Shown: positions 25,150 to 42,335 of the stretch, piece after piece | Position numbering within the stretch: the first letter of the stretch is position 1 | Layout of the letters: every line of letters starts with the position of its first letter | IMG/VR virus record: IMGVR_UViG_3300044898_000031 | Coordinates: 12,529 to 76,528 of that record | Length of the DNA stretch: 64,000 nt | Strand: one strand, 5' to 3' | From: a virus | Taxonomy: Duplodnaviria; Caudoviricetes | The notes under the pieces: generated by a model | Told to the model about the DNA's origin: nothing | What the model saw: only the letters and a program-made list of their open reading frames with translations | Database searches by the model: none | Program-made: the position numbers and the translations under genes

Positions 25150-25596
25150 TTAACTAATATACAAATTATATTCTGCCTTTCTCCTGTCAACCAAGTCCTG
25201 CAATATCTTACCATCTGCCTTGTTCCATGCATACCATGCTTTTTGCAAATCGCCCTGTTGTCCGTTGATGATCTTAAGCAGCGTTGAACTCCGAAACCCG
25301 GAAGTTCCGATATTGTATACTAAACTAAACAATGCATCAAACTGATTTTGTTTAAGTATTGGCTTTGTCCAGTAAGCCACTGCATGGGAGTATTGTCCGG
25401 AAGTATTATTGAATAGTTCACGGGCGCGTTCTATGGTTATTGGCGGGTCGGTTATCTTTACATGTTCTCCATTTTCGTAATACGTAGACCCGTAGCCGAT
25501 AGTAGGTATGCCAACTTGGTCAAGGTATGGGTGTAGTACAAGCCCTTCTTGTTGTTTAATGAAGTTAAATCCTGCTTCGCTTAAAGTCGTTATCAT
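25150..25596 (-). CDS. Endolysin, GH24 lysozyme
   Basis: E-x8-D-x5-T triad: 'QQEGLVLHPYLDQVGIPTIGYG'; 'NQFDALFSLVYNIG'. Confidence 0.92.
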   Translation of the reverse strand: MITTLSEAGFNFIKQQEGLVLHPYLDQVGIPTIGYGSTYYENGEHVKITDPPITIERARELFNNTSGQYSHAVAYWTKPILKQNQFDALFSLVYNIGTSGFRSSTLLKIINGQQGDLQKAWYAWNKADGKILQDLVDRRKAEYNLYIS

Positions 25597-26203: not shown

Positions 26204-28054
26204 TCAATAAACAATAATACCAAACTTACCGTCGATAATCACAAAGTGACTCTGCGCAGCAGGGCTTACGGCAAAAGTGATTGTATAATGCGAACTGCCA
26301 CCCGTATTGGTTGCTGTAATCGTTACTGCTGTAGGGCTGTACACCGCAGTCGGCAAGCCCGATATAACACCTGTAGCGGCGTTTAAAGATAACCCCTGCG
26401 GTAATGCGACATCACTCGTATAGGATGTTGGGATACCACCCGTATTCGTTGGTGTCAGGGCAGTTATCCCCTGATTCTGAATATAAGCCACCATAGAAAG
26501 CGGGTAAGTGATATTTGGGGCAACTACCGGGATGGCATTTACTTTGATCGTTATAGGTACGCTACTGCTTCCTCCTCCATTTGTTGCGGTCGCTGTATAG
26601 GTAGTTAGCGGAGAGCTTGCCAGTGGAATACCTAATATTGTCCCATTAGCGAATATAAGCCCCGCAGAGAGAGCCGGCGAAATTGACCATGAAGTAACCG
26701 CACCACCTGTATTCGATGGATTTAAGGGGGTTATAGCCGTCCCTACTGTTGCGGTGAGCGTGTTGGGGGAATAGGATATATTAGGAGGGACTATAACCGG
26801 AGCTTTAACAACAATTGTTAAAGGCACACTACTCGTACCGCCTGAGTTATGCGCCACCACAGTATAGGTAGCCGACACGGTGACAGCACCGGGTATCCCG
26901 CTAATAATCCCCGTTGTGCTATTGATGCTTAACCCCGAAGGGAGTGCAGGCGATACGGTGTAGTTTACGATTGCCCCGCCAAAGCTATTGGACACAATGC
27001 TTACTATCGGTAAGCCTACCGTAAACGAATAAGAGGTAGGGGAATAACTAATACTCGGCGGCGCGACTACAGGGGTGCATGCAGGCCATAGCGGGTTAGG
27101 CAGGATGGATGCGTTTAACGCAGTACTGGTGGTATTACTTGCCCAACCAGTAGGCGAGAAAGCCGTACTGGGGTCAAACCAGTAGTTAAACACGTTCCCG
27201 TTGGCTGCGTTACAGCGAACGTTATTGAACGCCATGGTAATATTATTTGACGGTTGTCCGGAATAATTACCAAATGCGATGCCTACTGAAGTGTAAGATG
27301 TTTGTGCTAAATAACCTGTGTTATAACTCATTTCAATAAACGTACCACCTTGCACCTGTGCGCACACACTGCCACAGTTCACAAATGTATTACTATCGCA
27401 TCGTTGATATGAACCACCAACGTCCCCTCCAACCATGCCAACATAGCCTGTTCCCGGTGGATTATTAGAACCATTTAAGCATTGATTTCTACAAGCCCGT
27501 ATAGGACTTGCGGGAGTTCCATTACATTTATACAAAGAAAATTGGTCGCCTATTCCCGGGCCGCTCACGTCATGATAGGATTTATTATCTAAAATCTGAA
27601 TTGATGGCCCATTACACCCATTCAATTGAACCGAACTACCCCCTCCATCACTTGATGATGCTGTAACATTTGGATCAATAATATTATGGAAATAATTATA
27701 CCAAATATGAATATTACTTGTATTACCTGTCGTTCCATTTATTCCACGCCAACCGGACTCAAAGAAACAAGTGTCTATTGTGATATTGTAACATCCTGAA
27801 TTTATCCTTATCAACCCTGATAAAGCCGTACTATTTTTAATGATACATTTAGTAATGTGTACATCATGAACTCCCGCAGGAATGTTTATACCCACTGTAG
27901 CTGTGCCACCGAGGTCAATTGATTTTCCTGAAATAGTTGTGTTTGATGTTGCTGTGATTGCGCCGCTTGAGGTAAATGTTCCGCAACCGGGGACGGCTTG
28001 CGCCAAAGAGAACAAAGGTAAAATTGTGAGAAAGAACAGGATCAATCGTTTCAT
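26204..28054 (-). CDS. Secreted right-handed beta-helix protein with three putative Ig (He_PIG-type) repeats
   Basis: Signal peptide MKRLILFFLTILPLFSLA|Q; Asn/Cys-rich beta-helix repeats; three 'LPSGLSINSTTGIISG.P'-type repeats. Confidence 0.8.
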   Translation of the reverse strand: MKRLILFFLTILPLFSLAQAVPGCGTFTSSGAITATSNTTISGKSIDLGGTATVGINIPAGVHDVHITKCIIKNSTALSGLIRINSGCYNITIDTCFFESGWRGINGTTGNTSNIHIWYNYFHNIIDPNVTASSSDGGGSSVQLNGCNGPSIQILDNKSYHDVSGPGIGDQFSLYKCNGTPASPIRACRNQCLNGSNNPPGTGYVGMVGGDVGGSYQRCDSNTFVNCGSVCAQVQGGTFIEMSYNTGYLAQTSYTSVGIAFGNYSGQPSNNITMAFNNVRCNAANGNVFNYWFDPSTAFSPTGWASNTTSTALNASILPNPLWPACTPVVAPPSISYSPTSYSFTVGLPIVSIVSNSFGGAIVNYTVSPALPSGLSINSTTGIISGIPGAVTVSATYTVVAHNSGGTSSVPLTIVVKAPVIVPPNISYSPNTLTATVGTAITPLNPSNTGGAVTSWSISPALSAGLIFANGTILGIPLASSPLTTYTATATNGGGSSSVPITIKVNAIPVVAPNITYPLSMVAYIQNQGITALTPTNTGGIPTSYTSDVALPQGLSLNAATGVISGLPTAVYSPTAVTITATNTGGSSHYTITFAVSPAAQSHFVIIDGKFGIIVY

Positions 28055-28109
28055 AATTGTAAATTAATTTATGCAACTAATTTACAATTATTTATGAAAA
28101 TAAAAATGA

Positions 28110-28391
28110 TTAAAACCTGTTATGAAAGCGGATATATTTCCAAAGGTATAGCATAACAATACACATCGGCAGGTTAAGAATTAATATCCGGATAAGAGCC
28201 GTTGCGTTCGGGGGCCATATCAAAAAGAAAATACCAGCGCCACCGTATACCCAGATTTTACAAACAAATAAGGCAATCAGCAACTTGCGTAACATCCCAT
28301 TTTTAGAGCGGTAAAACTCGTATGCTATCCCGACCGACATCAGGCAGATAACAAGCATTACTATTTCAATTGCGATAAGGTTAAGGTTCAT
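28110..28391 (-). CDS. Small multi-pass membrane protein
   Basis: 93 aa, about 3 hydrophobic helices. Confidence 0.7.
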   Translation of the reverse strand: MNLNLIAIEIVMLVICLMSVGIAYEFYRSKNGMLRKLLIALFVCKIWVYGGAGIFFLIWPPNATALIRILILNLPMCIVMLYLWKYIRFHNRF

Positions 28392-28645
28392 TTTCTGTTT
28401 TCTAACATGGTTTTTACTGCTGTTAACACATTGGTGTTATTGTTGGTTACTCTATTGCTTTCCTCAAATTGTCTTTCTATGGTCTTTTTCCAATCTGTGC
28501 GTTCATCTCTATGCTGCCGCTCCAGTTCTTCACGCTCCCGCTTATGGTCTTGAATAACGTCCTTGATGAACTTAACGCACCATCCTATAGCTCCTATAGC
28601 GATTGCTGCAATTACACCGGGGATGCCATACTTATCTAAATCCAT
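28388..28645 (-). CDS. Holin-like single-TM plus coiled-coil protein (BhlA/UviB-like architecture)
   Basis: N-terminal TM 'YGIPGVIAAIAIGAIGW' followed by charged heptads. Confidence 0.6.
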   Translation of the reverse strand: MDLDKYGIPGVIAAIAIGAIGWCVKFIKDVIQDHKREREELERQHRDERTDWKKTIERQFEESNRVTNNNTNVLTAVKTMLENRK

Positions 28646-28701
28646 CCGAACTTTATTTTTGCTTCAATTATTACAGTTGCTGACAAGTATTTTCATTTGA
28701 T

Positions 28702-29001
28702 TTATCTTTTCATATCCCTATAAATATCTGTAATTTGTTTTCTGATGCCTTTCTGTTCATCCCTTAAATCCTTGATGTCATCTCTGATATTAGAGATTGC
28801 TAAAGTAACAGATTCGTTTACTACGCTTTTTATAAACTCCTCTTTCTCTAACCTTAATAATCTATTGGCCTCTGTTTTTTGCTGCTTAAGGTATTTAAAA
28901 TACTGGTCAACGCCCCAGCCAAAGCCAAACACGCCGCTTACGCAAGCGGTAATCCATTTAAATAAAGCGATCCAATCCGGTTCAGGTGGTGGTATTGCCA
29001 T
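28702..29001 (-). CDS. Holin-like single-TM plus coiled-coil protein
   Basis: Start MAIPPPEPDW at 29001 preferred; TM then heptads. Confidence 0.6.
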   Translation of the reverse strand: MAIPPPEPDWIALFKWITACVSGVFGFGWGVDQYFKYLKQQKTEANRLLRLEKEEFIKSVVNESVTLAISNIRDDIKDLRDEQKGIRKQITDIYRDMKR

Positions 29002-29008
29002 TTTGTTT

Positions 29009-29446
29009 TTAATCTGATAGTAAGTCATGTCTTGATCCGCTTATTAGTATTAACAGGGTTACAATAAACGTACCGATATTTAAAGCTAAAAAATAAACAT
29101 AAGGGTCACTAATTTTGCCGAAATAAACTCCTGTAATCAGGACGTAAGTTAAAACAATGGCTACTTTAAAGCAATTTAATATTTGCCTTTGAATAAAATG
29201 CCTTACGCCCATAAACTCAAAAATAAAAACAGAGCTAATGCCTAACCCCATAATCGCATTACGCCACTTATCTTTAAACCAGATACACTCCATCATGTCC
29301 ATTTTAACAGTGGCAAGTATATAGTAAAAACGAGTTATGCTTACAGAAAATATCAGCAGGCACAAGCAGGTAACCCCGGTTAAGGAGAATACATTCTTGC
29401 CTATCTTTATTATCCAGTCAATAAGTGATCCTATAAAAAGTTTCAT
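29009..29446 (-). CDS. Four-TM membrane protein
   Basis: ATG at 29446 overlaps the stop of the upstream peptide gene (ATGA); four hydrophobic segments. Confidence 0.7.
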   Translation of the reverse strand: MKLFIGSLIDWIIKIGKNVFSLTGVTCLCLLIFSVSITRFYYILATVKMDMMECIWFKDKWRNAIMGLGISSVFIFEFMGVRHFIQRQILNCFKVAIVLTYVLITGVYFGKISDPYVYFLALNIGTFIVTLLILISGSRHDLLSD

Positions 29447-29643
29447 GCGGCGGGTATCCATACACATGCACCGTTTGAGCATACCCAATAGCCGTTAGTT
29501 GTTTTACCAGGGCCTGAACATGCCGGGTTGCATGTGGTGCTAACCTCAGGGTGAACGATACCGAATTGGTCTCTTGTAACATAGCCTGCTACGGTGGCGA
29601 ATGTTTCTGGTGATAATGTTTGTAAGTAATCTTTGATTTCCAT
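29443..29643 (-). CDS. Small Cys-rich peptide (C-x3-C-x12-C-x4-C)
   Basis: 66 aa; Cys38/42/55/60 confined to the C-terminal half; A-rich leader. Confidence 0.7.
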   Translation of the reverse strand: MEIKDYLQTLSPETFATVAGYVTRDQFGIVHPEVSTTCNPACSGPGKTTNGYWVCSNGACVWIPAA

Positions 29644-29661
29644 TTTATTGTGTTTTTAAAG

Positions 29662-30036
29662 TTAATTCTGTTTTGCCAGCCGTTTAGTATTTAAAAAAAT
29701 CCAGGTATATAGCTTTGTTTGTAAAGCCGTCCATTTTGAGTAAACACTTGCGGGCATATCCTTTTTCACGGTGGTTAATAGCGAACCTGATTTATCATAA
29801 TACCTTAGCTCTAACTGAATGTTTATGGTGGTATCACTGGTTATGTGCGCTAATATATCTACAGAACGCACTGAATCCCCTAAGGCATTTGCGGGGATAT
29901 TAACAATCTCCTGCCCGTATTTAGGCATCCAAAGCGAATCATTTAAAGTCAGGTTCTTAGACTTTACTTTAATCATTGTTTGTGCATTTGCGCCGATAGC
30001 TGCTATCAGGAGCAAAAAGGTTAAGTATTTTTTCAT
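29662..30036 (-). CDS. Secreted small protein, candidate fibre-associated or chaperone factor
   Basis: Signal peptide MKKYLTFLLLIAAIGANA|Q; ATGA coupled. Confidence 0.7.
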   Translation of the reverse strand: MKKYLTFLLLIAAIGANAQTMIKVKSKNLTLNDSLWMPKYGQEIVNIPANALGDSVRSVDILAHITSDTTINIQLELRYYDKSGSLLTTVKKDMPASVYSKWTALQTKLYTWIFLNTKRLAKQN

Positions 30037-30476
30037 CTGTAATCTCCTAATAAAGTTATTCTTAAATTTAATGTGCTGCCTGTTACCGTTGCCGCCGTCA
30101 CCTTAACAAATATGCCTGTATTCGCAGGAACTGACGTTGCTATTGTTGCCAGTGTCGGGTACATGATACTATTTAGCGTGTACAAGCTAGTTAAGGTTGT
30201 TGCGGGTACTATGTTATTGTAATTGGGGCTGTTAGTACCCACCGATACAATGGCAGGAACAGTAAGTACGGTAACATTACTGCTCATTATCTCACAAACA
30301 GCCAAAAGCGGATAAAACATCTCTGTCCCATTTTCGGTCGTCCCTATCTGTGTGGATGCGGAGGAAAGCAAACTGATGTTCGTTTTAGGGAACCGCTCCA
30401 ATGGCCTGTTCCCCGCGCCCTGTGCGAAAAGTAATGCGGGTGAAAGTAATAAAAATAATAAGATAAGATTTTTCAT
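30033..30476 (-). CDS. Secreted small beta-sandwich protein
   Basis: Signal peptide MKNLILLFLLLSPALLFA|Q; Thr/Val-rich strands. Confidence 0.7.
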   Translation of the reverse strand: MKNLILLFLLLSPALLFAQGAGNRPLERFPKTNISLLSSASTQIGTTENGTEMFYPLLAVCEIMSSNVTVLTVPAIVSVGTNSPNYNNIVPATTLTSLYTLNSIMYPTLATIATSVPANTGIFVKVTAATVTGSTLNLRITLLGDYR

Positions 30477-30478
30477 AT

Positions 30479-33400
30479 TTAATAAGTAAAAAAGTTTCCG
30501 GATGAAGCAACATAATAAACCCTTATGTTGCCATAATTTGTATTGATTGTTTTACTTGATGCACCGTCAATAGTTTTACCTGAAGGTGCATTTATAGTGA
30601 TATTGTTTGTTCCTGCTGTTCCAGCCTCATCTTTGATGATTTGCTGTTGCTGATCTGTCAGCGCGATTAAGGTAACGGTACGGGCGGCTGTAAGTGACGT
30701 GTACGAAATCAGGTAGTCGGTCGATAAGGCGGTGTATGCAACGTCCGAAACGGTAGTTCGGCTGTTCAGATAATTAGTGCTGTTTACACTCACTAAGTTC
30801 TTGTTTGCGTCTGTGCCTACAAGTTTTGAAGCTGTGAGTCCGTCCAAGTGAAATGCTCCTGTTCCGATCCATGCTGAAAAATTATTAACCCCGGTAGCCA
30901 CCGCATTCCCCACGTATAACGAAGCTGTATTAGTTACCGAACCTGTTCCTACCAGTGTAATTGTGCCGAGTGGGTTAGCTACAACAGTTGCGGCCCATGG
31001 TACAGTTGTGGCTGTTCCTACCTGAAATGGTGTTGAGCCGAATATAGCGTTTGAATAAGTAGTGCCATTTGCAACAAGTGAGTTAGTATTACCGTTAAAT
31101 AGAACTCTATAATTATTGGTTGCTGCACCGGCATATATAGCACCTGTTGATGTAGTTGTTGTGGTAGATGTGCCCCCGTTCGCATTAAAATTAGCTGTAC
31201 CCCCTGAAGCGGTGAATATACCCTGATTACCTTGTATAAAACCTCCTATAATGCTTCCGTTTGTGGTGAAAGTCCCACTATTTGTAAGTGTTAGCGAACC
31301 TGAATTATCCAAAACCATTCTTGTAGTATATGACGGCGTACTTGATGAACCCCTTGAGGATGCCCATGTAAGTGTGGTGGTTGGTGCTGCCCCGCTTGTT
31401 ACATCAGCATATTGTATCCAGTCGGCATAATTATCGGCAGCCGTTGTGGTGGTATTCCATACATGCGCACCCAAATGAAGTGATGGCGATATTTGTCTTG
31501 GTACGCCTGATGTGGATAGTGTATTATTTTGCAAGAAAAGCGCATCCGTTGGAGTAATGACGATGTTGTTTTGCTGAAAGGTATTTAACCCTGTCCATAT
31601 ATTGGCTGCTGTTAAGGAAACACCCTCATTGTAATCCACCCACCAGCTTGCTGCGGTTGTACCACTTGTTAAGATACACGTAAATACAGCAGATGACCCG
31701 GCAGGCATAATACGCACCGTGTTACCTCCAGATGATTGCACCGTAACCACTCCTGTACTTGAATTTTTTATAGATATGGAATAGTTAAACACCAATGTTG
31801 ATGCTACAGGCAGTACGCATGTTTGTGTTGTTGTGCCTGTAAATATTGTTTTATTTGGAGAGCCTACCGTAAGGGTGGTTGTCCCGGCTGCTGTAGCTAT
31901 ACTTTGCCCGTTTTGAATTAGGTTGTTAATTGTTGAGTTGGCATTAGCATCACGGGAAACAATAGTACTTGCAGTGGCAGCATTGGTAGCATCGGTAGTG
32001 ATCGTAACTGCTGCTGACCCATTATAAGATGAACCTCCGGATGTAAGATGTGTGTCAAATGTCAGTGCATTAAGATTTGACCCTAATGATACGCCGCTAA
32101 TGGTTGAGTTGACTAAACCAGCGTTTGGTAATCCTGTAGCATTGGCAAGTGTTAATGATGCCGGAGTTCCAAATACACCACCGTTGGGAATAGTCACCGT
32201 CCCTGTGAAAGTTGGCGAAGCGATGTTGGCCTTTAAAGTAATATTACTTGTGTTGGTAGCAATATTGGTGGTATTGGTTGTAATCCGTCCACTCAAATTA
32301 TTATAATCAGTCAACGCCCCTGCTTTGCTTTTTAAAACTGTAGTATCCGCGCTGATAGTCCTATTTGCCGAAAGGTCGCCAATGGTTTGCATACCTAATC
32401 CTGCTGTTAAAGTGCGGGTTGTTGGAACATAACCATTAAACTTGGTTTGAAGTGCTGAAAGTGAGTAACTATTTGCTACGGTTCTGAATACTGCACTGTC
32501 GACTTTTGGTGCTGCATCGCTTCGCATGAACGTAACAGCAGAACCATTTACAGCCGAAGTCCCTGCTGTTGCTGTCGGATTAGCACCCGTAGGAACTGTA
32601 ACCCCGCTTACCGCATTATCTACATACGTCTTAACTGCATTTTGAGTTGGGTATAGTGTATTGCTTGTTCCTAAAGTAGTAGTAGTTGATTTATTGGCGA
32701 CTTTCTCTAACAAAGCCTCGAATGTGCTTGATATATCAATTACAGGCGTTGCACCTCCTGTAGAAGTAATTCGGTTAGTTGTTCCTGAAACAGAGGTGAC
32801 ACCCGATGAAATAGTCCCCTTAACACTATCTGCTTTGGCTTTGGCGGTACTGTCTGTATATGATTTGTTTACTAAGCTGTTTCCCCAATATAAGGCATGA
32901 TTAACACCCGATATTTCAATTCCATTGTGAGTAGTATTATCAATGCCCTGAATAGCCGAATGAAAACCTACGCGCGGTGTCGTCTCTATAAATATGGCAA
33001 CCTGATGCGATATGTCTTTATTTTGAATAATATCAAACCTGTCATTACCAATATTTACATCGGTATAATTTGCTGAATCCCGGCTGCCTGATGGATTGTC
33101 CCCGGTTACAAAATGATAACCTGAATACGAGCCGTAATTATGAAAATCAAACAGGTTTCCGTTCAGGTCTAAATCAAAGTTACCAGTTAGTGTACCGCCC
33201 AAGTTAACTGTACTATCCCCGATTGCTGTTGTACCGCTTCCGTCAACAATATGCGAACCGCCTCCACCGCTACCAGTTCCCACGTTCCCACCCGCATCAA
33301 CTACTAACGAAGTGCCCCCCGTTATCGCTGGCAAGTCCAGTATTGTCATGCCACCTTTTACTTTTAACGCCCCGTTAACCCCTGCGCCTGTTGCCGGGCC

Positions 33401-34657
33401 TGTAATATTTACGGTATAGGCTGAATCTATTGTTGCCCCGCCTATATTAATAATATGCAGTGGTTTTATTGCTATTTGGTTGAACATGGAATAGCTCCCA
33501 CCAGCCGCAGCAGTCACGTCCTGATTGCCGATAATAAACCCGGAATAATCCGTGCCTGATAAGGGGTTGGCAGAAGTTGACCCCCGCATAAATGCCCGGT
33601 AAGCTACTGTGCTATGGTCTGATATTAATAGCTTTGGATTGGTACTTGTATTTACCCCGCTCCCAAATACGGCAAAGTCGGATGACTCCCTCGCGCCGGG
33701 GTTGGACTGGTAAACGCCTTCAAGTGGTGTGCCAATTATAGGCCCTGTAAAAGCAAGCGTATCGCCGTGTTGATGTACAGTTACGTTTGACCTGAAATTC
33801 AATGGCAGAAAAGGTAAAACCAATGTGTCCACCTTTAGCGTATCATTACTCGTCCGTAGTCCGAAGCCGATATGCGCCGTATGTGCGGTCAGTGTATCCT
33901 TTAAAGCTGTTTGGGTAACTACATTTATCGTATCCACTGAAAATACATTAGCGGATAATTTCAGCCCGAACCCGGCATTATAAATCGCCTGATTACTGAA
34001 AAAAAGGTTTCCTGCCCCGTCCGTTTGTATTACCTGCCCGCTCAGCCCGTCGTTTGCCGGGAGGATATATTTTCCTCCAATAGTAAGCGTGTCTGTCCTT
34101 AATGACCTCACCCACGGCGTAGCGGTATTTTGCTGTATTAAGGGGTTAGCAAGAACAAACTGATTGATTGGCCCGGGTGGGATTATTATTGTACCCGTAG
34201 GAGTGATTAACACAGCCCCTGCGCGAAGGTCGCCATGCGGTATACTTGGCTCTACCGGATTAGGAGAAAGTATCCCTACGGCGATGTGAATGCCGTTATT
34301 GGCACTGTCGGCATAAACCGTCTCATACCGTGAGTAAACACTGTCTCTTGGTTGCAGGGTAAAGTTGGCAGGAGATGATAAAGTATATACCGTATTACTG
34401 ATATTCCAACTCCCTGCGCTTACAGTTAGCGTCGAGCCGGATACCGAAAGATTAAGACCTGATAATATTTGATTATATGATTGGTATTGCCCAAAATCAA
34501 AGTACTGGTATGTTAAACCATTAAACATCCATCTATGATGGGTTGACTGGTCATAATACATGGTTGCCTGTGGCATTTGTACAGGCTGCAATGGCTTTGT
34601 TTGTGACTTAACTAAAAACGGGCACAACAATAAAAAGTATAAAAGTAATTTTTTCAT
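30479..34657 (-). CDS. Tail-fibre-like protein (1392 aa) with N-terminal Sec signal peptide
   Basis: ATG at 34657 overlaps the upstream stop (ATGA); MKKLLLYFLLLCPFLVKS|Q; fibre motifs 'PANDGLSGQVIQTDGAGNL', 'YNAGFGLKLSANVFSV', 'GTPASLTLANATGLP'; C-terminal 'IIKDEAGTAGTNNITI...IDG' domain. Confidence 0.8.
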   Translation of the reverse strand: MKKLLLYFLLLCPFLVKSQTKPLQPVQMPQATMYYDQSTHHRWMFNGLTYQYFDFGQYQSYNQILSGLNLSVSGSTLTVSAGSWNISNTVYTLSSPANFTLQPRDSVYSRYETVYADSANNGIHIAVGILSPNPVEPSIPHGDLRAGAVLITPTGTIIIPPGPINQFVLANPLIQQNTATPWVRSLRTDTLTIGGKYILPANDGLSGQVIQTDGAGNLFFSNQAIYNAGFGLKLSANVFSVDTINVVTQTALKDTLTAHTAHIGFGLRTSNDTLKVDTLVLPFLPLNFRSNVTVHQHGDTLAFTGPIIGTPLEGVYQSNPGARESSDFAVFGSGVNTSTNPKLLISDHSTVAYRAFMRGSTSANPLSGTDYSGFIIGNQDVTAAAGGSYSMFNQIAIKPLHIINIGGATIDSAYTVNITGPATGAGVNGALKVKGGMTILDLPAITGGTSLVVDAGGNVGTGSGGGGSHIVDGSGTTAIGDSTVNLGGTLTGNFDLDLNGNLFDFHNYGSYSGYHFVTGDNPSGSRDSANYTDVNIGNDRFDIIQNKDISHQVAIFIETTPRVGFHSAIQGIDNTTHNGIEISGVNHALYWGNSLVNKSYTDSTAKAKADSVKGTISSGVTSVSGTTNRITSTGGATPVIDISSTFEALLEKVANKSTTTTLGTSNTLYPTQNAVKTYVDNAVSGVTVPTGANPTATAGTSAVNGSAVTFMRSDAAPKVDSAVFRTVANSYSLSALQTKFNGYVPTTRTLTAGLGMQTIGDLSANRTISADTTVLKSKAGALTDYNNLSGRITTNTTNIATNTSNITLKANIASPTFTGTVTIPNGGVFGTPASLTLANATGLPNAGLVNSTISGVSLGSNLNALTFDTHLTSGGSSYNGSAAVTITTDATNAATASTIVSRDANANSTINNLIQNGQSIATAAGTTTLTVGSPNKTIFTGTTTQTCVLPVASTLVFNYSISIKNSSTGVVTVQSSGGNTVRIMPAGSSAVFTCILTSGTTAASWWVDYNEGVSLTAANIWTGLNTFQQNNIVITPTDALFLQNNTLSTSGVPRQISPSLHLGAHVWNTTTTAADNYADWIQYADVTSGAAPTTTLTWASSRGSSSTPSYTTRMVLDNSGSLTLTNSGTFTTNGSIIGGFIQGNQGIFTASGGTANFNANGGTSTTTTTSTGAIYAGAATNNYRVLFNGNTNSLVANGTTYSNAIFGSTPFQVGTATTVPWAATVVANPLGTITLVGTGSVTNTASLYVGNAVATGVNNFSAWIGTGAFHLDGLTASKLVGTDANKNLVSVNSTNYLNSRTTVSDVAYTALSTDYLISYTSLTAARTVTLIALTDQQQQIIKDEAGTAGTNNITINAPSGKTIDGASSKTINTNYGNIRVYYVASSGNFFTY

Positions 34658-35232
34658 GATATGATAAAGCCGCTTATTTGAATATAGCCTGTAGTCGGTA
34701 TAGGATATGTCCATGTGTAACTGTCTGGCAGGTTTATATCGCTGTCAATATTAATGATGGTAGGCACTGTTGCGGTATCCTGTGTATACGTTCCATCGCC
34801 GTTGGATACCCATATAGATATATCAGGGAAGTTTCCATACAAGATAGAATAGGTAGCTTGATAGCCCGATAATGAAATGGTAGTTTGTGCATTAAATAGT
34901 ATCCTTGTTGCATTGGCCGTGACATCTTGGGTGATAACAATTGAATTTGGCGGCGGTTGGTAATTCTCGTCTATCTCATTCAGTGTGGGGTCCAGCCCTA
35001 TTTTTTCACTCAGACAGATATAAACGGCTACCGCTTCACTTGAATTATAATCACCCATATTAAACTGCCTGCTCAATGCCTGTATATTAAGGTAATATTC
35101 TTGTGCTTCTTTCCAACTGACAGACCCCAATGGTGCTCCTTTAGTCAATTTTACACGGTTATCCTCAACTAAATTCGCCATAATCAGTTGAGCCGTGAGT
35201 ATCGTATTTTGTACCTGATCCTGTGTTATCAT
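34654..35232 (-). CDS. Putative tail hub or fibre-docking protein
   Basis: 192 aa between ejection genes and fibre; no signal peptide. Confidence 0.45.
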   Translation of the reverse strand: MITQDQVQNTILTAQLIMANLVEDNRVKLTKGAPLGSVSWKEAQEYYLNIQALSRQFNMGDYNSSEAVAVYICLSEKIGLDPTLNEIDENYQPPPNSIVITQDVTANATRILFNAQTTISLSGYQATYSILYGNFPDISIWVSNGDGTYTQDTATVPTIINIDSDINLPDSYTWTYPIPTTGYIQISGFIIS

Positions 35233-35684
35233 GGGTTCAAATAAGTATTTGCTGCTACAATATTATTTTGTGCCAAAATGCTTAACCCTGCCAAGGCATA
35301 GCGTAAAGCTGCCGCTAAAAATAGTTCACCTATTGAAAGTTCCTGAAATGTTTCATGTGAACAGTTACAGGAGCACCCTACTTTACTGATGATATTTAAA
35401 AAAGTGGCACTATAAATACCTATCGCTAAATAGTCCCTTATTTTTTCATAACTGCCGTTATTGTCTATCACGTCAAGCTTAAACCGAAACCATGCATCTG
35501 CCGTAATGCCATAATTTGCGGTCAGGCTTGTACCCATATTGATCTGCGTTAGCTCGTTGCCTAATGCATCGTAGATAGTCAGCATACGGCTTGTTACTGT
35601 GCCGTACCCTGTTCCGGTATCCGTGGCTGTCAGGGTTTTCCCGTCAAGGGATGATGATATTGAAAGTCCTATTACTGCTGACAT
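35229..35684 (-). CDS. Putative tail/collar structural protein
   Basis: 151 aa; beta-rich N-terminus, 'CSCNC', helical C-terminus; late-operon position. Confidence 0.45.
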   Translation of the reverse strand: MSAVIGLSISSSLDGKTLTATDTGTGYGTVTSRMLTIYDALGNELTQINMGTSLTANYGITADAWFRFKLDVIDNNGSYEKIRDYLAIGIYSATFLNIISKVGCSCNCSHETFQELSIGELFLAAALRYALAGLSILAQNNIVAANTYLNP

Positions 35685-35687
35685 AAC

Positions 35688-36023
35688 TTATGCTTTTTGG
35701 TATTGTAAAAGACTGTAATCTGCAAAAGATGGCGGAACAAGAACATTTATAAGCAACGTATCGCCATTGGCTAATCCGCCCGGAAGCGTTGTCCACGTAA
35801 TGGTATAAACGGTCAATCCGGCTACTGTAGTTTTGGCAACGGTAGCACTATCCATAGGAATAGTGAGTGCTGCGGTAACATCATATATGCTTACTATTGA
35901 CCCCGGAACACCAGTACTAAGATTTATTTTAAGTCCGCTCTGAATACCGTTTATCACCAGCTTTCCGTTGCCGGGGGTAAACGTGTATGTGTACGGATTT
36001 TGTTTACTAATCTGAATAACCAT
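35688..36023 (-). CDS. Putative small virion beta-sandwich protein
   Basis: 111 aa, Thr/Val-rich; TATCTTTA box upstream. Confidence 0.45.
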   Translation of the reverse strand: MVIQISKQNPYTYTFTPGNGKLVINGIQSGLKINLSTGVPGSIVSIYDVTAALTIPMDSATVAKTTVAGLTVYTITWTTLPGGLANGDTLLINVLVPPSFADYSLLQYQKA

Positions 36024-36068: not shown

Positions 36069-39000
36069 TTATTCAGCCTCTTTTGCCATTGTCTTTTGTA
36101 AATCCTGTTGGCCCTTTTGTATAAAATGTGCTTTTGCAGCATCATTGCCATGAGGAGTAAATAATCTCGGCAGTGCTATATCTCGTATATACCCGAAAAG
36201 CGATAATACACCTGCTTGGTCAGCATTAACATTATTATCAATTGAGTTTATGCCAAATAAGCTTTTTTCAAATCCTGTCTTTTGGTTAAGATAATTTATG
36301 CCTTTTTCAAGTGCTGGATTTAATGATTCGGTGGCTACCATAGCATTTGCAAGATACTGCTCTCCAAATCCTACAGCATTAACTTTCCTAAATAAACCAA
36401 TATCTGGTTGCCCTTTATCATTTCTGTTATTAGTAATATAAGGTGCTCTACCTGTTACAGCAGTTGTCACAAACTGAGTCCCTGGCGCTGAGGTTAAAGG
36501 ACTAACGAATGTATTTAAAGCCTGATTAGATGCTGCTTCGACGCTTTGACCTGCTGTACCGCCCAATTGATTTGTTTCCCATGCTTTAGGTGCGCCAATG
36601 GCACGTAATCCACGACCAAGTACAGGGAATTGAGAACCAAAAATATCTATATCATCCCATTCACCAGTTTTTTCATTATAAGCGAATTTCTTCGTGAAAT
36701 CATTTTTAAGGGACTCTGGCATAGGCACACGACCAAGTTTACTTGTTTCATCTTCCCATGGCCATTTTCCTGTAATCGCATGATAGGCTGTCATCCAGTA
36801 AGCAACTGCCCCTACAACCCCTCCTGTCACTAATTGAGCGGCTTTATATCCTATCAATTTAGCCGTTTGTTTAGCGCCCATTTTTGTTGTAAATGCCTGT
36901 TTTATAGTTGGTCTTTCTAATGCCAATGGGCTTGTTCCTGTTACTGCCTGTAATCCTGCTTTATAAATAGCAGAACCAAAGGTATAATATGGTGCCATTC
37001 CGCTCTCCTTTAGATTCCTGCCTAATGTGCTTTGCAGTGCTTTGGTATAAACACCCAATTCTTCCTGCATTTTTTGATGTAATTCAGGGGTTGCCTGTGG
37101 ATTCATAGCATCTGTAAGCCTGTACATAAGAACTCTTGCCTTCAAGTCAAAAGAATGATTGCCATAAAGTAATGGTGAAAAATCCCAAAAAGCAGGAATA
37201 TCTATTTTGCCAACTTTTAAACGTAATGCTTTTGCACCCATATCTTCGGCAAATTCCCTATTCCATGTTTTCTGCCATGTCTTTTCAGGTATAAACCCTT
37301 CATTAGCCATTTTTTGAATAGTTCTTAAAGCATCGTCACTTGAAATGTCAGTGGCTAATATTTTCCCTATTGTTAAAAAACTTTTTGTTACTGGGTTATT
37401 AGCTATAAGCCCTCCCGCTTTACCTATCAGCCCATTTTTATAAGCCCATTCAGTTACATATGGATTTGACCCCGTAATGACACCTGTGAGCCTGTATGCA
37501 TGTGCGGTAGCTTCTAACGGCCCACCCAATTGGAATTTTATGAGTGTATTGGCTACTTTTCCAAATAGGCTATACTTATCAAATTCATCCGTTGAGTTAA
37601 ATATAGGTTTCATCTCATCATGTAACCATTTAGGCATCAGTACGTATTTTGATGGTGTATGTGTGATTTTACCATCATTTATAATCATCCTACTGTCCTT
37701 TACCTTTTCCTTAACAGCATCAAATACCTCGTCACCTATCTGTATTTTATTGCCATCGTCAGGATGATTATGTGGTATATCAACTACTAATCCTGCTTCT
37801 TTTAAAGCATCAATTGCATTTGATTTATTGTTGGTTTTAATAGATGATACAAGCTTATTTGAAAAGTCAGCAATTGCGGTGCTATAATTATCGCCCTGTC
37901 CTGTAAACATTTTATTGTTTATATTTTGAGGGGCATTAAAAGTATTTCCTTTCGACGGTATTCTCGCTTTTTCATTGCCACCTAAACGAGTCATGGGGAA
38001 ATAAGTATCTAATGGGCCAAGAGCATCACTAAAAATACCCTCGTTACTTGCATGGCTGTCGGCTATTGGTTTTTCTATAAATTCCTTATATGCCTCCAAT
38101 GCCTGTTGCATTTTATGGTCGGTAAATTTGCCGTCTTTTACCTGATCATCGAAAGTCTTACCATTAGATAATGTTCCTAAAGTAATTACATTATCTGCCG
38201 CATGTTTAAATACGTCTGAAATATATTGCCGAGCTTCGTCATACCTCGCAGCCCCAATAAGGCTTGCGGCAAAGTCAGCTGGATTACCTTCTCCCTCTAA
38301 TGGCTGTAAGGTTTTTATCATGCTGTACATATTGCCATCTTTGCCATCCTTAAAAAGGTCATGCAAATCACTATCACTTTGCTTTTCTATTTGGTCAGCA
38401 TAGCCATTCCATCGTTCTTTTGCCCCTCGTAGCCTGCTTTCTACCAATGCTTCACGTAGATTTGTCCACCCATCGCTACCAACTAAGTTCTTTATTGCCT
38501 TAGTAGCTGTTTTAAGTATAACTGAGGCTTGCGATCGAGAGGTAGCATATTTTCTAACTGCATCATAAGCATCAAAGTTTTTTATGTCGTGTGTAAATGC
38601 CCTCAACTGTTCTAAGTTCCGTATAGTATAACTTTTTAGTGCCGCTGTTCGGGTATATACCCTTTTAGTTTCATCTTTCTGTTTTTCAGGTAATTCATCT
38701 ACTGGAACAGGTAACTTTGCTTGTGCAGGTATTTGCCTTTTAGGAAGTGTGGCAACTGGCTTTTTGCGCTCCGCCATAAACTGGTCAAGTTCCTTTGGTG
38801 TATTGTATGGCTTTCTCTCTTTTGGATCAAGGTTGGCAAGATGTGCCGCATACGCTGACTTTAAAGCATCAACATCCTCATCGGTGGTATCATGATACGT
38901 TTTTAACCAATCATTTACTATATCGGCAAATTTATGTATACCAATATCAGCATAAGCCTTTATCACTTTAGCCATGCTCTTTAATAATTCAGGGTTGACC

Positions 39001-42000
39001 CCTATATTTGTTTCAGAACGTGCTTTTTTTAAGGCTTGTGATAATTCTTTTTTAGACTGCTCTAAATATTGCCCCCGTTTTACTGCGCCTGCGGATTTTT
39101 CAGGTTGTTCACGTACTGTCTCACCTTTAATATTTTCGTCCGCACTTCGGCTTTCGTCATTGGCCTGTCGTACATCTTCCGGAATGCGTCCAGTGTCTTC
39201 TGCGTTGTTTGCAGGTAGTCCGGTATTTGTTCTTGACTGCTCATAATCCCTTATTTGGTCGGCAGTGATGCCGTTTGGTTTTAAATCCTTTGTTACTCCG
39301 GCTTTTGCCTTATCATTCAGGTTTACCAGTTTAGCCTTACTCTCATCTTGAATATCTAATGCTTCTTTAGCCTTTTTAATAAGTTCGGGAGTAAGTTTTT
39401 CACGATTCTGGCTGTAAGCTAACCGCGCCTCAAAATCGCTGTCATAGGGTTTAGAAATAGTTAATCCTGAATTGGTATCCACAATACCGAATTTCCCATC
39501 AGGGAGTTCCCCCAATGCTAAATGATATTCAGACCCTTTTAGCTTATAAGGTTGAAGCAGGTTATTATCCTTAATTTTGATTTTACCTGCTTTACCTTGC
39601 GTTACTTCTTCTTTGGTGGGAATGGGTTTTTCTTCTTTGCTGGTTTTTTCTTGCTGCCCATTTTGTCCGCTTTCTTGTCCATTTTCGGCTCGTAGCCCTT
39701 CTTCATTGTTGCCATTTTCTGTTGTTTTTATTGGTGAATATTTAATATATTTAGCTATATCATAAACTTTTTGCTCCCGATCAACTTCTGCCTGCCAAAC
39801 TTTAGCCATCTTCTCATCTTTAAGACGATTAGCTTCGACAAGATTATCTTTTGCATTTTGTAACCTTCTCTCAGTGGCTTCCAAATTAGGTCTATTCTCA
39901 GCCAATTGTCTTTCAGTTGACCTTTTTGGCGTTAAATTCGGTTTGCCTTGTGGTGCTTTATCAATACGCTCAGGGAACTCTTTTTTTATTTGGTCAAGCC
40001 CATCGGTGCCTATAAACCAATCTTTGTGAACCTTAAATACACCATCATCCTTTACATTAAAGATAACTTTACCGTCTTTATCAACTTCATACCCTGCTTT
40101 TTTAACAGCATCTACATTTTCGCCATCACCATCCAAAGCCGCATGAACTTCTTGCATTTGATCGATAATATCAGCTTTTTGTGCCTTTAGTTTTGCAGTA
40201 GTGGCATTATCTTTATCCTTTAACTCTTTAGCTTTACTATCAATGGCTTTAATCAACTGTTCTTCTTTGACATCATCCGCTTTAACTTCGGTACGTCCAC
40301 TGGCTTGCTCACTTGTTGTGGTAGGCTCTTTTGGTCGGTCTGATCCGCCCATTTTTTCGCCCATTTCTGGTGTGTCGCGAATGCCCATTTTTGCTGTTTC
40401 TTGCTGAGAAAGGGTGCCATTTTCTTGTTCTCCTATATTAGTTTCAGGTGTTTCATTAACTTTTTCAGCAGGGGCTTCCTGCGGTGCTTGCGGTACGCCA
40501 TTTTCAACAGTCGGCTCAATCGGTGGTGTGTTGACTTGGTTCTGTATATCTTCATGCTGCTCTTTGATGACACCTTTTAAAGCCTTATAAGCCTCGTTCT
40601 TTAATTTGGTAAGGTTCTCTATCCCTACTTCCGCTTCGGTCTTTTCAACGGGGTCTTGTGAGCCGTCAGCGATAGGTTGCAGGTTCTTTAAATCCTCGTC
40701 AATCGCACTGATCTTTTTGCCTATCTTCTGCTTTAAATTTTCCGTCAAATCCGTATGTACGGCATTTACCTTGTCTAAAACGGCCTGTTTCTCCGGTGCT
40801 GATAATTCTGAATTATTTATACCCTCTACGAAACTTGCCTTATCAGCCAATAGGCTTTGCGCTATCGTTTTGACATTGGATAGCTTGCTATACGTTGAAC
40901 TTGCTGCTGCCAGTTGCGCCCTTTTCTCCGGGTCAGTCTCCTTTTTTGCCTGTGCTGCATAATCTACCGCTTTCGCATTCAGGTCAGCCGCATTATCCGG
41001 TAACTCATAAGCTTCTTTAATAGCATCAGGGGAAGCATCCAAAAAGTTGTTCATCGCTACCGCCTGCCTGTTCTGCTTAAATTCCTGCAATGGCGCATCC
41101 GCCTTTTCAAACTCTCCTGCGGTATGTGCCGCCTTTAACAGCCCAAAAAAACCACCGATACCTGCATTAGTTTCCGCCTCTTTTAAATCAAATGGTTTTC
41201 CTTGTAATAAATTTGAGGCAATAGGATAAGCCCCGAAGATAGCGGCATCCGTAACTGCATCAACCCCCATTTTAGTAAGTTTACCATCGGTTAATATTCC
41301 TGTCGAAGTAAGTCCGTTAGCTATCTTTGGCGAAATAAACTCCCCTCCTATTGAACCCAATACATTCATGGTAGCGGCGCTTATCCCCTCGTGTACTGCT
41401 CCCTTTAAGCCCTCTTTAGCAGCTTCTGCGGGTGCGCGTCCCTGCTGCCTTGCAAGGTCATAGCTTTCCAGCCCTCCTTTAATAGCTGATATTTTTGTAA
41501 ATGGATTTATCACCACTGATTTTAACTTCGCCAGTGACGCAGCATTTACGCCCATATCGGCTGTAGTGCCCAATTCCGCTTCGGGTGCTAATGCTGCCGC
41601 ACCTGCTATTGGGGCTATATTGATAAGCCCACTTGTCACGTTCCCAAAAAATGTATTTGGCAACGGGTTCTTCTGATCCTGCTCCGTAGTGGCATTATTA
41701 TAACTGTCAAGCCCTAAAGCAAGCTTATTAGTAAAACTGCCTGCGGTATGGTCATCCCCTAATTTATTAGCCAAATCAACTGATACGTGGGCTAAGCCAG
41801 CCAGTGGCTTTGTTACAGCCCCTACAAGCGCATGCTCAAATATTGGGAGTGTATTGCCCCAATTCCCGGGATGTGCTTTCTCAAAGTCTTTACGCTGCTT
41901 TTCTAAGTCCTGATAATATTGACTACCGGGATTATTAAGCTGCGCTTCAGGCGTATTTTGATTAGCTATAAACTGCTGCACTGCTGCTTTATCATCAGGG

Positions 42001-42335
42001 TTATTCTGATTAAAAATAGGGGCATCCTGTGGCATTCCCTGAAACTGTGGATTTGGCGTATTAGCTACCTGCTGGTCGTGCGCTAACTGCGCTTGTCCGT
42101 TTAATGGGAATGGATTAAAATCTTGGCCGTTCGTGCCACCACTCTGCGAGCCGTTTGAGGTAGTTGACGCAGCGGGAGTAGAAACTTTTTTTTTTACGGC
42201 CAAATCCCCGAAAGGATTAAGACCGCCCGTTTTATCCTGTACAGGCGCAGGCGTAGTCCCATGCTTGTACTGATGCAAAGCCTTTAAAAGTGGGTTATCG
42301 CCCGGAGGTGTTTCTACTGCATTTAAATCAGCCAT
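36069..42335 (-). CDS. Large internal virion or ejection protein (2088 aa)
   Basis: Largest ORF; after two cargo-type genes; low-complexity N-terminus, Gly/Ala helices, helical C-terminal region; no DxDGD/DFDxD polymerase motif seen. Confidence 0.65.
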   Translation of the reverse strand: MADLNAVETPPGDNPLLKALHQYKHGTTPAPVQDKTGGLNPFGDLAVKKKVSTPAASTTSNGSQSGGTNGQDFNPFPLNGQAQLAHDQQVANTPNPQFQGMPQDAPIFNQNNPDDKAAVQQFIANQNTPEAQLNNPGSQYYQDLEKQRKDFEKAHPGNWGNTLPIFEHALVGAVTKPLAGLAHVSVDLANKLGDDHTAGSFTNKLALGLDSYNNATTEQDQKNPLPNTFFGNVTSGLINIAPIAGAAALAPEAELGTTADMGVNAASLAKLKSVVINPFTKISAIKGGLESYDLARQQGRAPAEAAKEGLKGAVHEGISAATMNVLGSIGGEFISPKIANGLTSTGILTDGKLTKMGVDAVTDAAIFGAYPIASNLLQGKPFDLKEAETNAGIGGFFGLLKAAHTAGEFEKADAPLQEFKQNRQAVAMNNFLDASPDAIKEAYELPDNAADLNAKAVDYAAQAKKETDPEKRAQLAAASSTYSKLSNVKTIAQSLLADKASFVEGINNSELSAPEKQAVLDKVNAVHTDLTENLKQKIGKKISAIDEDLKNLQPIADGSQDPVEKTEAEVGIENLTKLKNEAYKALKGVIKEQHEDIQNQVNTPPIEPTVENGVPQAPQEAPAEKVNETPETNIGEQENGTLSQQETAKMGIRDTPEMGEKMGGSDRPKEPTTTSEQASGRTEVKADDVKEEQLIKAIDSKAKELKDKDNATTAKLKAQKADIIDQMQEVHAALDGDGENVDAVKKAGYEVDKDGKVIFNVKDDGVFKVHKDWFIGTDGLDQIKKEFPERIDKAPQGKPNLTPKRSTERQLAENRPNLEATERRLQNAKDNLVEANRLKDEKMAKVWQAEVDREQKVYDIAKYIKYSPIKTTENGNNEEGLRAENGQESGQNGQQEKTSKEEKPIPTKEEVTQGKAGKIKIKDNNLLQPYKLKGSEYHLALGELPDGKFGIVDTNSGLTISKPYDSDFEARLAYSQNREKLTPELIKKAKEALDIQDESKAKLVNLNDKAKAGVTKDLKPNGITADQIRDYEQSRTNTGLPANNAEDTGRIPEDVRQANDESRSADENIKGETVREQPEKSAGAVKRGQYLEQSKKELSQALKKARSETNIGVNPELLKSMAKVIKAYADIGIHKFADIVNDWLKTYHDTTDEDVDALKSAYAAHLANLDPKERKPYNTPKELDQFMAERKKPVATLPKRQIPAQAKLPVPVDELPEKQKDETKRVYTRTAALKSYTIRNLEQLRAFTHDIKNFDAYDAVRKYATSRSQASVILKTATKAIKNLVGSDGWTNLREALVESRLRGAKERWNGYADQIEKQSDSDLHDLFKDGKDGNMYSMIKTLQPLEGEGNPADFAASLIGAARYDEARQYISDVFKHAADNVITLGTLSNGKTFDDQVKDGKFTDHKMQQALEAYKEFIEKPIADSHASNEGIFSDALGPLDTYFPMTRLGGNEKARIPSKGNTFNAPQNINNKMFTGQGDNYSTAIADFSNKLVSSIKTNNKSNAIDALKEAGLVVDIPHNHPDDGNKIQIGDEVFDAVKEKVKDSRMIINDGKITHTPSKYVLMPKWLHDEMKPIFNSTDEFDKYSLFGKVANTLIKFQLGGPLEATAHAYRLTGVITGSNPYVTEWAYKNGLIGKAGGLIANNPVTKSFLTIGKILATDISSDDALRTIQKMANEGFIPEKTWQKTWNREFAEDMGAKALRLKVGKIDIPAFWDFSPLLYGNHSFDLKARVLMYRLTDAMNPQATPELHQKMQEELGVYTKALQSTLGRNLKESGMAPYYTFGSAIYKAGLQAVTGTSPLALERPTIKQAFTTKMGAKQTAKLIGYKAAQLVTGGVVGAVAYWMTAYHAITGKWPWEDETSKLGRVPMPESLKNDFTKKFAYNEKTGEWDDIDIFGSQFPVLGRGLRAIGAPKAWETNQLGGTAGQSVEAASNQALNTFVSPLTSAPGTQFVTTAVTGRAPYITNNRNDKGQPDIGLFRKVNAVGFGEQYLANAMVATESLNPALEKGINYLNQKTGFEKSLFGINSIDNNVNADQAGVLSLFGYIRDIALPRLFTPHGNDAAKAHFIQKGQQDLQKTMAKEAE

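Follow-up and report, generated by a model that had tools for sequence, protein, structure and literature searches.

Predicted Sec leaders obeying the Q-rule on a receptor-binding fibre and three late-operon neighbours of a Bacteroidota podovirus

The DNA analysed here (the window, 64,000 nucleotides) comes from an uncultured, short-tailed, Bacteroidota-infecting phage with a genome of about 76-76.5 kb, a podovirus of the crAss/Pachyviridae type. The minus strand of its late operon carries four translationally coupled genes, encoding proteins of 1392, 147, 124 and 616 aa, that begin with a hydrophobic leader followed by Gln. These genes and their neighbours are located in the window as follows:

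35688..36023, minus strand: leader-less conserved late protein, 111 aa, conserved in related loci
35229..35684, minus strand: leader-less conserved late protein, 151 aa, conserved in related loci
34654..35232, minus strand: leader-less protein, 192 aa, ATGA-coupled to the fibre gene
30479..34657, minus strand: fibre/receptor-binding protein precursor, 1392 aa (leader, homologues, variable C-terminus)
34604-34657, minus strand: fibre leader, residues 1-18, with Gln19 as the predicted mature N-terminus
34160..34486, minus strand: fibre residues 58-166, beta-sandwich with the RBP/TssK "shoulder" fold (AF2 model and fold search)
30033..30476, minus strand: leader-bearing protein, 147 aa, eight-stranded jelly-roll (model pLDDT 82)
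29662..30036, minus strand: leader-bearing protein, 124 aa (3 O-glycosylation sequons vs 0.5 expected)
29443-29643, minus strand: 66-aa peptide with 4 Cys, within the block 28110..29643
29009-29488, 28702-29028, 28388-28645 and 28110-28391, minus strand: four small membrane-protein genes (hydrophobic segments)
26204..28054, minus strand: leader-bearing beta-helix/He_PIG protein, 616 aa (Pfam He_PIG, 7.5e-21)
25150..25596, minus strand: endolysin, GH24 phage lysozyme without leader (Pfam PF00959, 5.9e-32; phrog_7)

A reading of the locus from the sequence only had described the leader-bearing genes as tightly coupled to the signal-less genes at 34654-36023, and the spacings bear this out: they are +3, -4 and -4 nt for the 111-, 151- and 192-aa genes, +2 nt from the fibre to the 147-aa gene, and -4 nt from the latter to the 124-aa gene. 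In every related locus the 192-aa gene directly precedes the first leader gene; its product has no match in Pfam or PHROG, its Atlas leads are at chance level, and we consider it a candidate adaptor or export chaperone. The same reading placed a Cys-rich peptide gene and four membrane-protein genes between the third and fourth leader genes. The 66-aa peptide does have four Cys residues, and clear TM segments are present in three of the four membrane proteins (157, 108, 85 and 93 aa), the 108-aa one having only a moderately hydrophobic segment. This whole gene set, also found in five syntenic phage contigs of 71-76 kb (L002, L004, L005, L011, L014), is probably a holin/spanin-type lysis cassette. 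A moron or lysogenic-conversion origin of the leader genes (lambda Lom/Bor type) is not supported: their starts overlap the preceding late genes or sit 2-3 nt away, promoter- and terminator-like sites are not above the level in shuffled sequences, and the GC content of the region resembles that of the remaining late operon.

Inspection of the N-termini confirmed the four ORFs and their leaders as first proposed. The predicted leaders are MKKLLLYFLLLCPFLVKS in the 1392-aa fibre (start 34657), MKNLILLFLLLSPALLFA in the 147-aa protein (start 30476), MKKYLTFLLLIAAIGANA in the 124-aa protein (start 30036) and MKRLILFFLTILPLFSLA in the 616-aa protein (start 28054), each followed by Q. All have one or two Lys/Arg residues, an uncharged hydrophobic core of 12-15 residues and a small residue at -1, with Gln at +1 of the predicted cleavage site in four of four proteins; the -3/-1 pairs are V/S, L/A, A/A and S/A, of which Leu at -3 of the 147-aa protein is atypical. 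The longest fibre ORF begins 57 nt further upstream, at 34714; 34657 is the better start, because homologues begin at MKK and because it gives the ATGA overlap. Bacterial lipoproteins (SPase II substrates) were considered and rejected, since no Cys follows the hydrophobic core and a lipobox with Cys at +1 is absent from all four proteins. Gln at +1 is a Bacteroidota-specific mark of signal peptidase I substrates (Bochtler et al. 2018, PMC5837995), and judged by their N-termini the four proteins are Sec/signal-peptidase-I substrates that obey this Q-rule, with cleavage predicted before the Gln. The expectation that only these four would carry Sec leaders holds for the late operon, where scanning all six frames by a simple n-region/h-region rule yielded only the four genes; it does not hold for the early region, in which we found a fifth genuine-looking Sec+Gln ORF (8457-8717, plus strand; MKKLLLLPSLLFVLTASA, then Q). 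The scan gave four more hits, which are shadow ORFs or internal starts.

Analysis of homologous loci reveals that the leaders are conserved. A basic-hydrophobic leader followed by Gln is present in 18 of 20 fibre homologues, a leader begins all 19 close homologues of the 616-aa protein, and all fibre-like genes of the five syntenic contigs carry one; L005 also encodes a leader-bearing homologue of the 124-aa protein at the equivalent place. Gln occupies +1 in all leader-bearing fibre homologues and in most homologues of the 616-aa protein. Related domains are leader-less in other phages and belong to lipoproteins in Bacteroidota chromosomes (a lipobox is present in the chromosomal relatives of the beta-helix domain), and it follows that the leader is a lineage-specific addition for targeting.

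The 1392-aa protein, encoded at the end of the tail module, has no match in Pfam, PHROG or NCBIfam, no sequence match in the PDB and no tblastn match in cultured phages. Its AF2 model reaches pLDDT 76-90 across residues 58-166 and is poor outside residues 60-160 (mean pLDDT 54). A VIA-align search of 48,161 chains with residues 58-166 placed N-domains of RBPs or tail fibres, or TssK, in each of the first 12 rows (Z 8.4-4.8), and the next, unrelated row drops to Z 3.9. The matches include SPP1 gp22 (Z 8.4), the HFTV1 tail fibre (Z 8.1, rmsd 2.0 over 90 residues), BPP-1 Mtd (Z 8.0), the RBPs of the lactococcal phages 1358 and p2 (Z 7.5 and 6.5), the fibre of cyanophage A-1(L) (Z 7.5) and TssK (Z 6.5-5.0); as chance matches do occur at Z of 6-8, the case for a shoulder domain depends on the mutual agreement of the top 12 rows. 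Foldseek ranked the same entries first, but as weak matches. Because the Z-scores are middling, the assignment is a statement at the level of the fold. The N-terminal ~280 residues are conserved, while the remainder is swapped between relatives, some of which bear SGNH esterase or K1-lyase_C domains at the variable end. The fold of residues 58-166 together with this conserved N-terminus and variable C-terminus upholds the earlier view of the protein as a tail fibre: by fold and architecture it is a true RBP-type fibre. Elsewhere in the 76.5-kb genome, we recognised no fibre-like gene without a leader.

Fold matches of the 147-aa jelly-roll are generic (phage cement proteins, fibre tips, CBMs) and include the tip domain Bd2133 of the Bdellovibrio MAT fibres (Z 6.8); its family has members with and without leaders, and a gene of this type comes right after fibres with a common C-terminal motif. 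In the ESM Atlas, the 124-aa protein falls into viral hypothetical clusters only. The 616-aa protein is composed of a right-handed beta-helix (residues ~20-330; relatives of this N-domain carry PF13229/PF05048), three He_PIG Ig-like domains and a conserved C-terminal tail, IDGKFGxIVY. Four of its Cys residues, C24, C70, C96 and C326, are invariant (alignment A4), which suggests a periplasmic life for the predicted mature protein.

A further hint of periplasmic life was found in the distribution of the sequon of Bacteroidota general O-glycosylation, scored as D[ST][AILVMT]. The fibre family has 250 sequons vs 94 expected (2.65x; 7.1x within residues 1-300), and the window fibre has 15 vs 6.5 expected. 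Among the controls for this family, D[ST] followed by another residue is at 0.46x, the reverse motif at 0.76x and the E/N motifs at about 1; leader-less structural proteins are at 0.65x for the sequon itself. Among distant domain relatives, the median is 1.79x in leader+Gln proteins vs 0.83x in leader-less ones (Mann-Whitney p = 0.0015). The 616-aa and 147-aa proteins show no sequon enrichment. The enrichment, specific to the motif and to leader+Gln proteins, suggests passage through the compartment in which such sites would be glycosylated.

According to textbooks, folding and assembly of every tailed-phage component take place in the cytoplasm. Known Sec-dependent phage proteins are the coat proteins g3p and g8p of filamentous phages, secreted or SAR endolysins, and the lambda morons Lom and Bor. 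These serve, respectively, as membrane-assembled inovirus coats, in lysis and in lysogenic conversion, unlike the fibre described here, and to our knowledge none of them is a receptor-binding fibre of a tailed virion. The phenomenon had been thought undescribed, and our literature search indeed found no description of tailed-phage tail fibres with export signals; the claim of novelty nevertheless has to be narrowed on two counts. Leaders that follow the Q-rule occur on proteins of unknown function in Porphyromonas gingivalis phages, for which host-envelope modification was proposed (Matrishin et al. 2023, PMC10367356); they share with our proteins a phage-encoded leader with Gln at +1, whereas the carrier here is an RBP-type fibre with its operon partners. 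Moreover, gp085-gp087 of Cellulophaga phage phi18:3 (NC_021794, Pachyviridae) and gp091-gp094 of phi10:1 (NC_021802, Assiduviridae) all begin with a leader and Gln, and their records annotate them as "structural protein, experimental MS/MS proteomics"; we found no paper commenting on these leaders. As in the window, their genes, of fibre/lyase type, follow one another where the tail module ends, just before small membrane proteins and the endolysin, and phi18:3 has the same particle type, its gp114 being homologous to the window's 1285-aa tail protein (E 8e-17). The leader-bearing Cellulophaga proteins, however, have no detectable sequence homology to ours, which makes them analogous only, and unlike our fibre family they show no sequon enrichment.

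Two other systems are comparable at the level of architecture. The mosaic adhesive trimer (MAT) fibres of Bdellovibrio bacteriovorus show that trimeric fibres of the phage type, equipped with a signal peptide and with an N-terminal beta-domain that is conserved, can be exported (Caulton et al. 2024, PMC10769870). They resemble the fibre described here in the succession of signal peptide, conserved beta-rich N-terminal domain and exchangeable tips, but they are bacterial and sit on the surface of the predator, while our genes lie in the late operon of a tailed phage. In siphophage RBPs (p2, 1358, SPP1 gp22, BPP-1 Mtd) and in TssK of the T6SS, the N-terminal shoulder fold is the baseplate anchor; the similarity is confined to the fold (5-14% identity), those proteins have no signal peptide, and the present phage is a podovirus.

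Since the fibre and its three neighbours bear the secretion signal of the host, the host-recognition gear very probably matures in the periplasm rather than in the cytoplasm. Predicted export of the four proteins is well supported, and on balance we favour a Sec-exported receptor-binding module that becomes attached to the particle around or after lysis. The four precursors would be made late from the coupled operon and translocated by the host Sec system; signal peptidase I would cut before Gln19, which the host glutaminyl cyclase would convert into pyroglutamate, and the proteins would fold in the periplasm. There the fibre shaft may receive host general O-glycosylation at D-(S/T)-(A/I/L/V/M/T) sites, and the Cys-rich beta-helix may form disulfides; cleavage, glycosylation and disulfides are all presumed from sequence features. 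Capsid and tail would be assembled in the cytoplasm as usual, and we infer that the fibre meets the particle only once the holin opens the inner membrane, or after lysis, attaching via its conserved N-terminal region (residues 19-57 and the shoulder domain). In its full form, this model has part of a tailed virion built outside the cytoplasm, namely an exported, pyroglutamate-capped and oxidatively folded fibre with an O-glycan-coated shaft, fitted only once the holin has triggered and before the outer membrane ruptures, or else following release; the glycan might be modified by a glycosyltransferase cluster that the phage itself carries at the left genome end. This elaborated form is possible, and we advance it tentatively. 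Against the favoured model, no precedent has been described for fitting fibres from the periplasm onto particles from the cytoplasm around lysis, a step that may be inefficient, and the window's 1285-aa tail protein, which is leader-less, could have a receptor-binding function of its own.

The most serious alternative, on the whole unlikely, is that the proteins are exported without becoming part of the virion, as a late periplasmic or released "exit kit" that cuts, masks or binds host surface glycans and thereby helps progeny to escape from debris, blocks re-adsorption or superinfection, or supplies free adhesins or decoys. Such a role would suit the 616-aa protein, with its glycanase-type beta-helix and Ig-like repeats inside the lysis region, the SGNH esterase and K1-lyase domains of fibre relatives, the position of the leader genes on both sides of the holin-like genes and the endolysin, and the envelope modification proposed for the Porphyromonas phage proteins (PMC10367356). 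The RBP shoulder fold and the combination of conserved N-terminus and exchangeable C-terminus, however, point to docking on a conserved partner, no other fibre-like gene was recognised in the genome, and the leader-bearing counterparts in Cellulophaga phages are annotated as MS/MS-detected in virions. The two roles are not mutually exclusive.

Other explanations fit the data less well. That the hydrophobic N-terminus stays uncleaved, as a membrane anchor or structural helix of a cytoplasm-assembled fibre, is very improbable: residues 2-10 and 2-16 are helical in AF2 models, as expected for any leader, but the full n/h/c architecture, the small -1 residue and the +1 Gln recur in essentially every family member, in other phages the homologous domains have no such segment at all, and the sequon enrichment is confined to leader+Gln proteins. 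Slightly less credible still is display on the infected cell through post-Sec type IX secretion or outer-membrane insertion. The same repeats occur in many distant relatives that are giant Bacteroidota proteins (3000-4500 aa) with leaders, and both the fibre and the 616-aa protein have aromatic residues at their C-terminal ends; against this, none of the four proteins has a T9SS C-terminal domain (NCBIfam E <= 1; Pfam) or a lipobox, and fibre C-termini differ between relatives.

The favoured model of a Sec-exported receptor-binding module would, if true, change where and when a particle turns infectious; in its elaborated form it would also give Caudoviricetes a second assembly compartment and virion appendages with host-type glycosylation. 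The phage would depend on the Sec system, signal peptidase I, glutaminyl cyclase, the O-glycosylation machinery and disulfide formation of its host. For host-range work it implies that such fibres may be unmodified or misfolded when expressed in the cytoplasm of E. coli, and for annotation it matters because leader-bearing phage proteins are often dismissed as non-structural. As the trait is shared with cultured Cellulophaga phages, the question is directly testable there.

The four late genes that the sequence-only reading described as starting with a signal followed by Gln were all confirmed in the translated ORFs (we call leader a predicted Sec/signal-peptidase-I signal peptide). The first three lie, as that reading also stated, tightly packed behind three genes without a leader, with spacing of -4 to +3 nt:

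35688..36023, minus strand: leader-less 111-aa protein
35229..35684, minus strand: leader-less 151-aa protein
34654..35232, minus strand: leader-less 192-aa protein
30479..34657, minus strand: fibre, 1392 aa, with leader
30033..30476, minus strand: 147-aa protein with leader
29662..30036, minus strand: 124-aa protein with leader
26204..28054, minus strand: 616-aa protein with leader
8457-8717, plus strand: 86-aa ORF with leader, early region

A simple n-region/h-region rule applied to the six frames of the window retrieved these four leaders and none besides in the late operon. The expectation that among the late ORFs only these four would carry one thus holds; in the early region we found one further convincing case (MKKLLLLPSLLFVLTASA followed by Gln), distant from the late operon and without a family match; its product is possibly an early periplasmic protein, e.g. 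a superinfection-exclusion factor. In all four late proteins the predicted cleavage site has a small residue followed by Gln, and a lipobox is absent from all four. Gln straight after a small residue is a mark of Bacteroidota signal peptidase I substrates (Bochtler et al. 2018, PMC5837995). Scans of the leader region for Bacteroidota-type and sigma-70-type promoters and for terminators returned sites at chance level, which together with the tight spacing rules out the leader genes as morons; they are therefore members of the operon. Two other ideas were dropped: an internal start producing a cytoplasmic fibre isoform (Met28 and Met33 vary among homologues), and a leader less conserved than the mature N-terminus (the majority-residue fraction is 0.70 for the leader versus 0.63).

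The window covers the rightmost 64 kb of an IMG/VR virus record of 76.5 kb that is rated complete, and the late operon runs on the minus strand from the large terminase through the portal and virion proteins to the leader-gene region:

59806-61971, minus strand: large terminase, start of the late operon
57236-59770, minus strand: portal

One late protein possesses the crAss muzzle C-terminal domain, terminase and portal show 23-25% identity to their counterparts from Flavobacterium and Cellulophaga podoviruses, and the 1285-aa tail protein has a homologue in gp114 of the cultured Cellulophaga phage phi18:3 (Pachyviridae; E 8e-17). These similarities identify the phage, at the sequence level, as an uncultured crAss/Pachyviridae-type podovirus; its cultured relatives have Bacteroidota hosts in every case. 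A search with the fibre N-domain against genomes of 185,579 species found no relatives, and hence yielded no prophage or host assignment, and tblastn with the fibre as query had no matches among 50,697 phage records. The giant 2088-aa late protein (36069-42335, minus strand), which has no family match, is probably ejected cargo, like phi18:3 gp123 and phi38:1 gp101.

Conservation of the leader, which the sequence-only reading had singled out for comparison across homologous loci, is borne out: 18 of 20 fibre homologues, situated on phage-sized contigs of 71-76 kb, start with a similar leader and Gln. In five syntenic loci on related contigs (L002, L004, L005, L011 and L014) the leader is present on each large fibre- or spike-like gene from the giant gene (1600-2088 aa) to the endolysin, i.e. 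on 2-4 large genes per phage, and the 616-aa protein has it in 19/19 close relatives. Among distant relatives of the fibre N-terminal domains 74/123 are leader-less; leader-less members also exist for the 147-aa family and for the beta-helix domain, and relatives of the latter on Bacteroidota chromosomes are lipoproteins. The occurrence of the same domains without a leader or as lipoproteins argues that the leader is a targeting device gained in particular lineages. Three sets of distant cultured relatives differ in this respect: fibres of phi18:3 bear a leader, and those of phi38:1 and of the Flavobacterium elemoviruses lack it. The trait is therefore lineage-specific rather than general to this type of particle. 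In an unrelated 64-kb contig (L022:6712-8411) the gene after that of a leader-bearing 427-aa protein encodes a 147-aa-family member that has no leader; targeting is therefore not always common to a fibre and its partner.

Identification of the 1392-aa product as a fibre was upheld by an RBP (receptor-binding protein)-type shoulder fold in its N-terminal part and by the conservation of ~280 N-terminal residues, with the remainder swapped among relatives, some of which carry C-terminal SGNH esterase or K1-lyase domains. The AF2 model is confident at residues 60-160 only. A fold search with this domain placed twelve rows at Z 8.4-4.8, ahead of the next at 3.9, comprising SPP1 gp22, tail fibres of HFTV1 and cyanophage A-1(L), BPP-1 Mtd, RBPs of lactococcal phages 1358 and p2, the phi812 baseplate, and TssK/IglD; Foldseek ranked the same RBP/TssK entries first. 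Judging from the model, the domain is an RBP "shoulder", the tail-anchoring part of such proteins, the Z-scores being middling and the match list coherent. Neither the fibre nor the 147-, 124-, 192-, 151- and 111-aa proteins have matches in Pfam, PHROGs, NCBIfam or PDB sequences, and leads for the 124- and 192-aa proteins in the ESM Atlas were at chance level. The 147-aa protein is modelled as a jelly-roll (pLDDT 82), a fold so common (366 chains at Z >= 5) that no function can be named from it; in unrelated contigs a gene of this family follows fibres that share one C-terminal motif. The 616-aa protein combines a right-handed beta-helix, in which four Cys are invariant, with three He_PIG domains and a C-terminal tail that is likewise conserved.

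A further sign of periplasmic life, independent of the leader, may be read from the Bacteroidota O-glycosylation sequon D-(S/T)-(A/I/L/V/M/T), counted as observed versus expected. The window's fibre has 15 sequons versus 6.5 expected, and the cytoplasmic 2088-aa protein 1 versus 6.3. Across the fibre family enrichment of the sequon is 2.65-fold; D-(S/T) with any other residue in third position is depleted (0.46), and the reversed motif and E/N controls are at about 1. Enrichment begins at residue 105 and is 7-fold within residues 1-300; it is lacking from the C-terminal 600 residues of the fibre in the window. Because members of the fibre family share descent, we also used distant relatives, whose median ratio is 1.79 with leader and Gln, 0.87 with a leader without Gln and 0.83 without a leader (Mann-Whitney p = 0.0015). 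No enrichment was found in the 616-aa, 147-aa and Cellulophaga leader-bearing proteins.

None of the four leader proteins matches a T9SS sorting domain in Pfam or NCBIfam, and the exported proteins should for this reason remain in the periplasm until lysis. For what follows, we favour, on indirect evidence, later attachment of the exported fibre module to the particle: the shoulder fold is combined with a conserved mature N-terminus, no other fibre-like gene was found in the genome, and all seven leader-bearing tail-end proteins of phi18:3 (gp085-087) and phi10:1 (gp091-094), whose N-termini we checked directly, are annotated in GenBank as structural ("experimental MS/MS proteomics analysis"). 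The Cellulophaga proteins, however, have no homology to those of the window, and their detection by MS/MS may reflect co-purification. It is also reasonable to regard the exported proteins as a free kit of enzymes and adhesins that acts on the surface of the host at about the time of lysis, and this is compatible with particle attachment.

In agreement with the earlier statement that such a system is not known to be described for a tailed phage, no account of tail fibres with a signal peptide was found in the literature searched. The closest published reports concern Porphyromonas phages, which encode Q-rule proteins of unknown function (PMC10367356), and Bdellovibrio, whose MAT fibres have a signal peptide (PMC10769870). 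This phage adds an RBP shoulder fold immediately after the leader, together with clear enrichment of the sequon.

Genes possibly connected with export or glycans, and small Cys-containing genes, were also found:

G000:C1:1-8600 (locus L009, left of the window): glycosyltransferase-like cluster (GT2-like, GT1-like, DUF5672) with a hexapeptide acetyltransferase
29443-29643, minus strand: small leader-less peptide, at the same position in L002, L004, L005 and L014
25593-25802, minus strand: 69-aa Lys/Arg- and Cys-rich ORF with a CxCWCC motif, ATGA-coupled to the endolysin gene

The glycosyltransferase-like cluster, in which no flippase or oligosaccharyltransferase was seen, might alter the glycan put on the exported fibre; it is split by HNH and GIY-YIG homing endonucleases. 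A related phage (L002, a 72.8-kb NCBI assembly contig) encodes a SecB-family export chaperone (L002:21768-22208, minus strand; PF02556, E 2e-12), absent from the window's genome. The presence of this chaperone gene is suggestive for a phage that exports large proteins, but SecB-like proteins occur in toxin-antitoxin systems too. The 29443-29643 peptide has a conserved C-terminal motif (approximately C-x2-G-Y-x4-6-G-x-C-V-x-[DE]-[IV]-G), and its gene invariably has the small leader-bearing proteins on one side and a multi-TM protein on the other; its stop codon falls within the following gene. In L005 a small Cys-containing ORF related to the 69-aa one precedes the endolysin.
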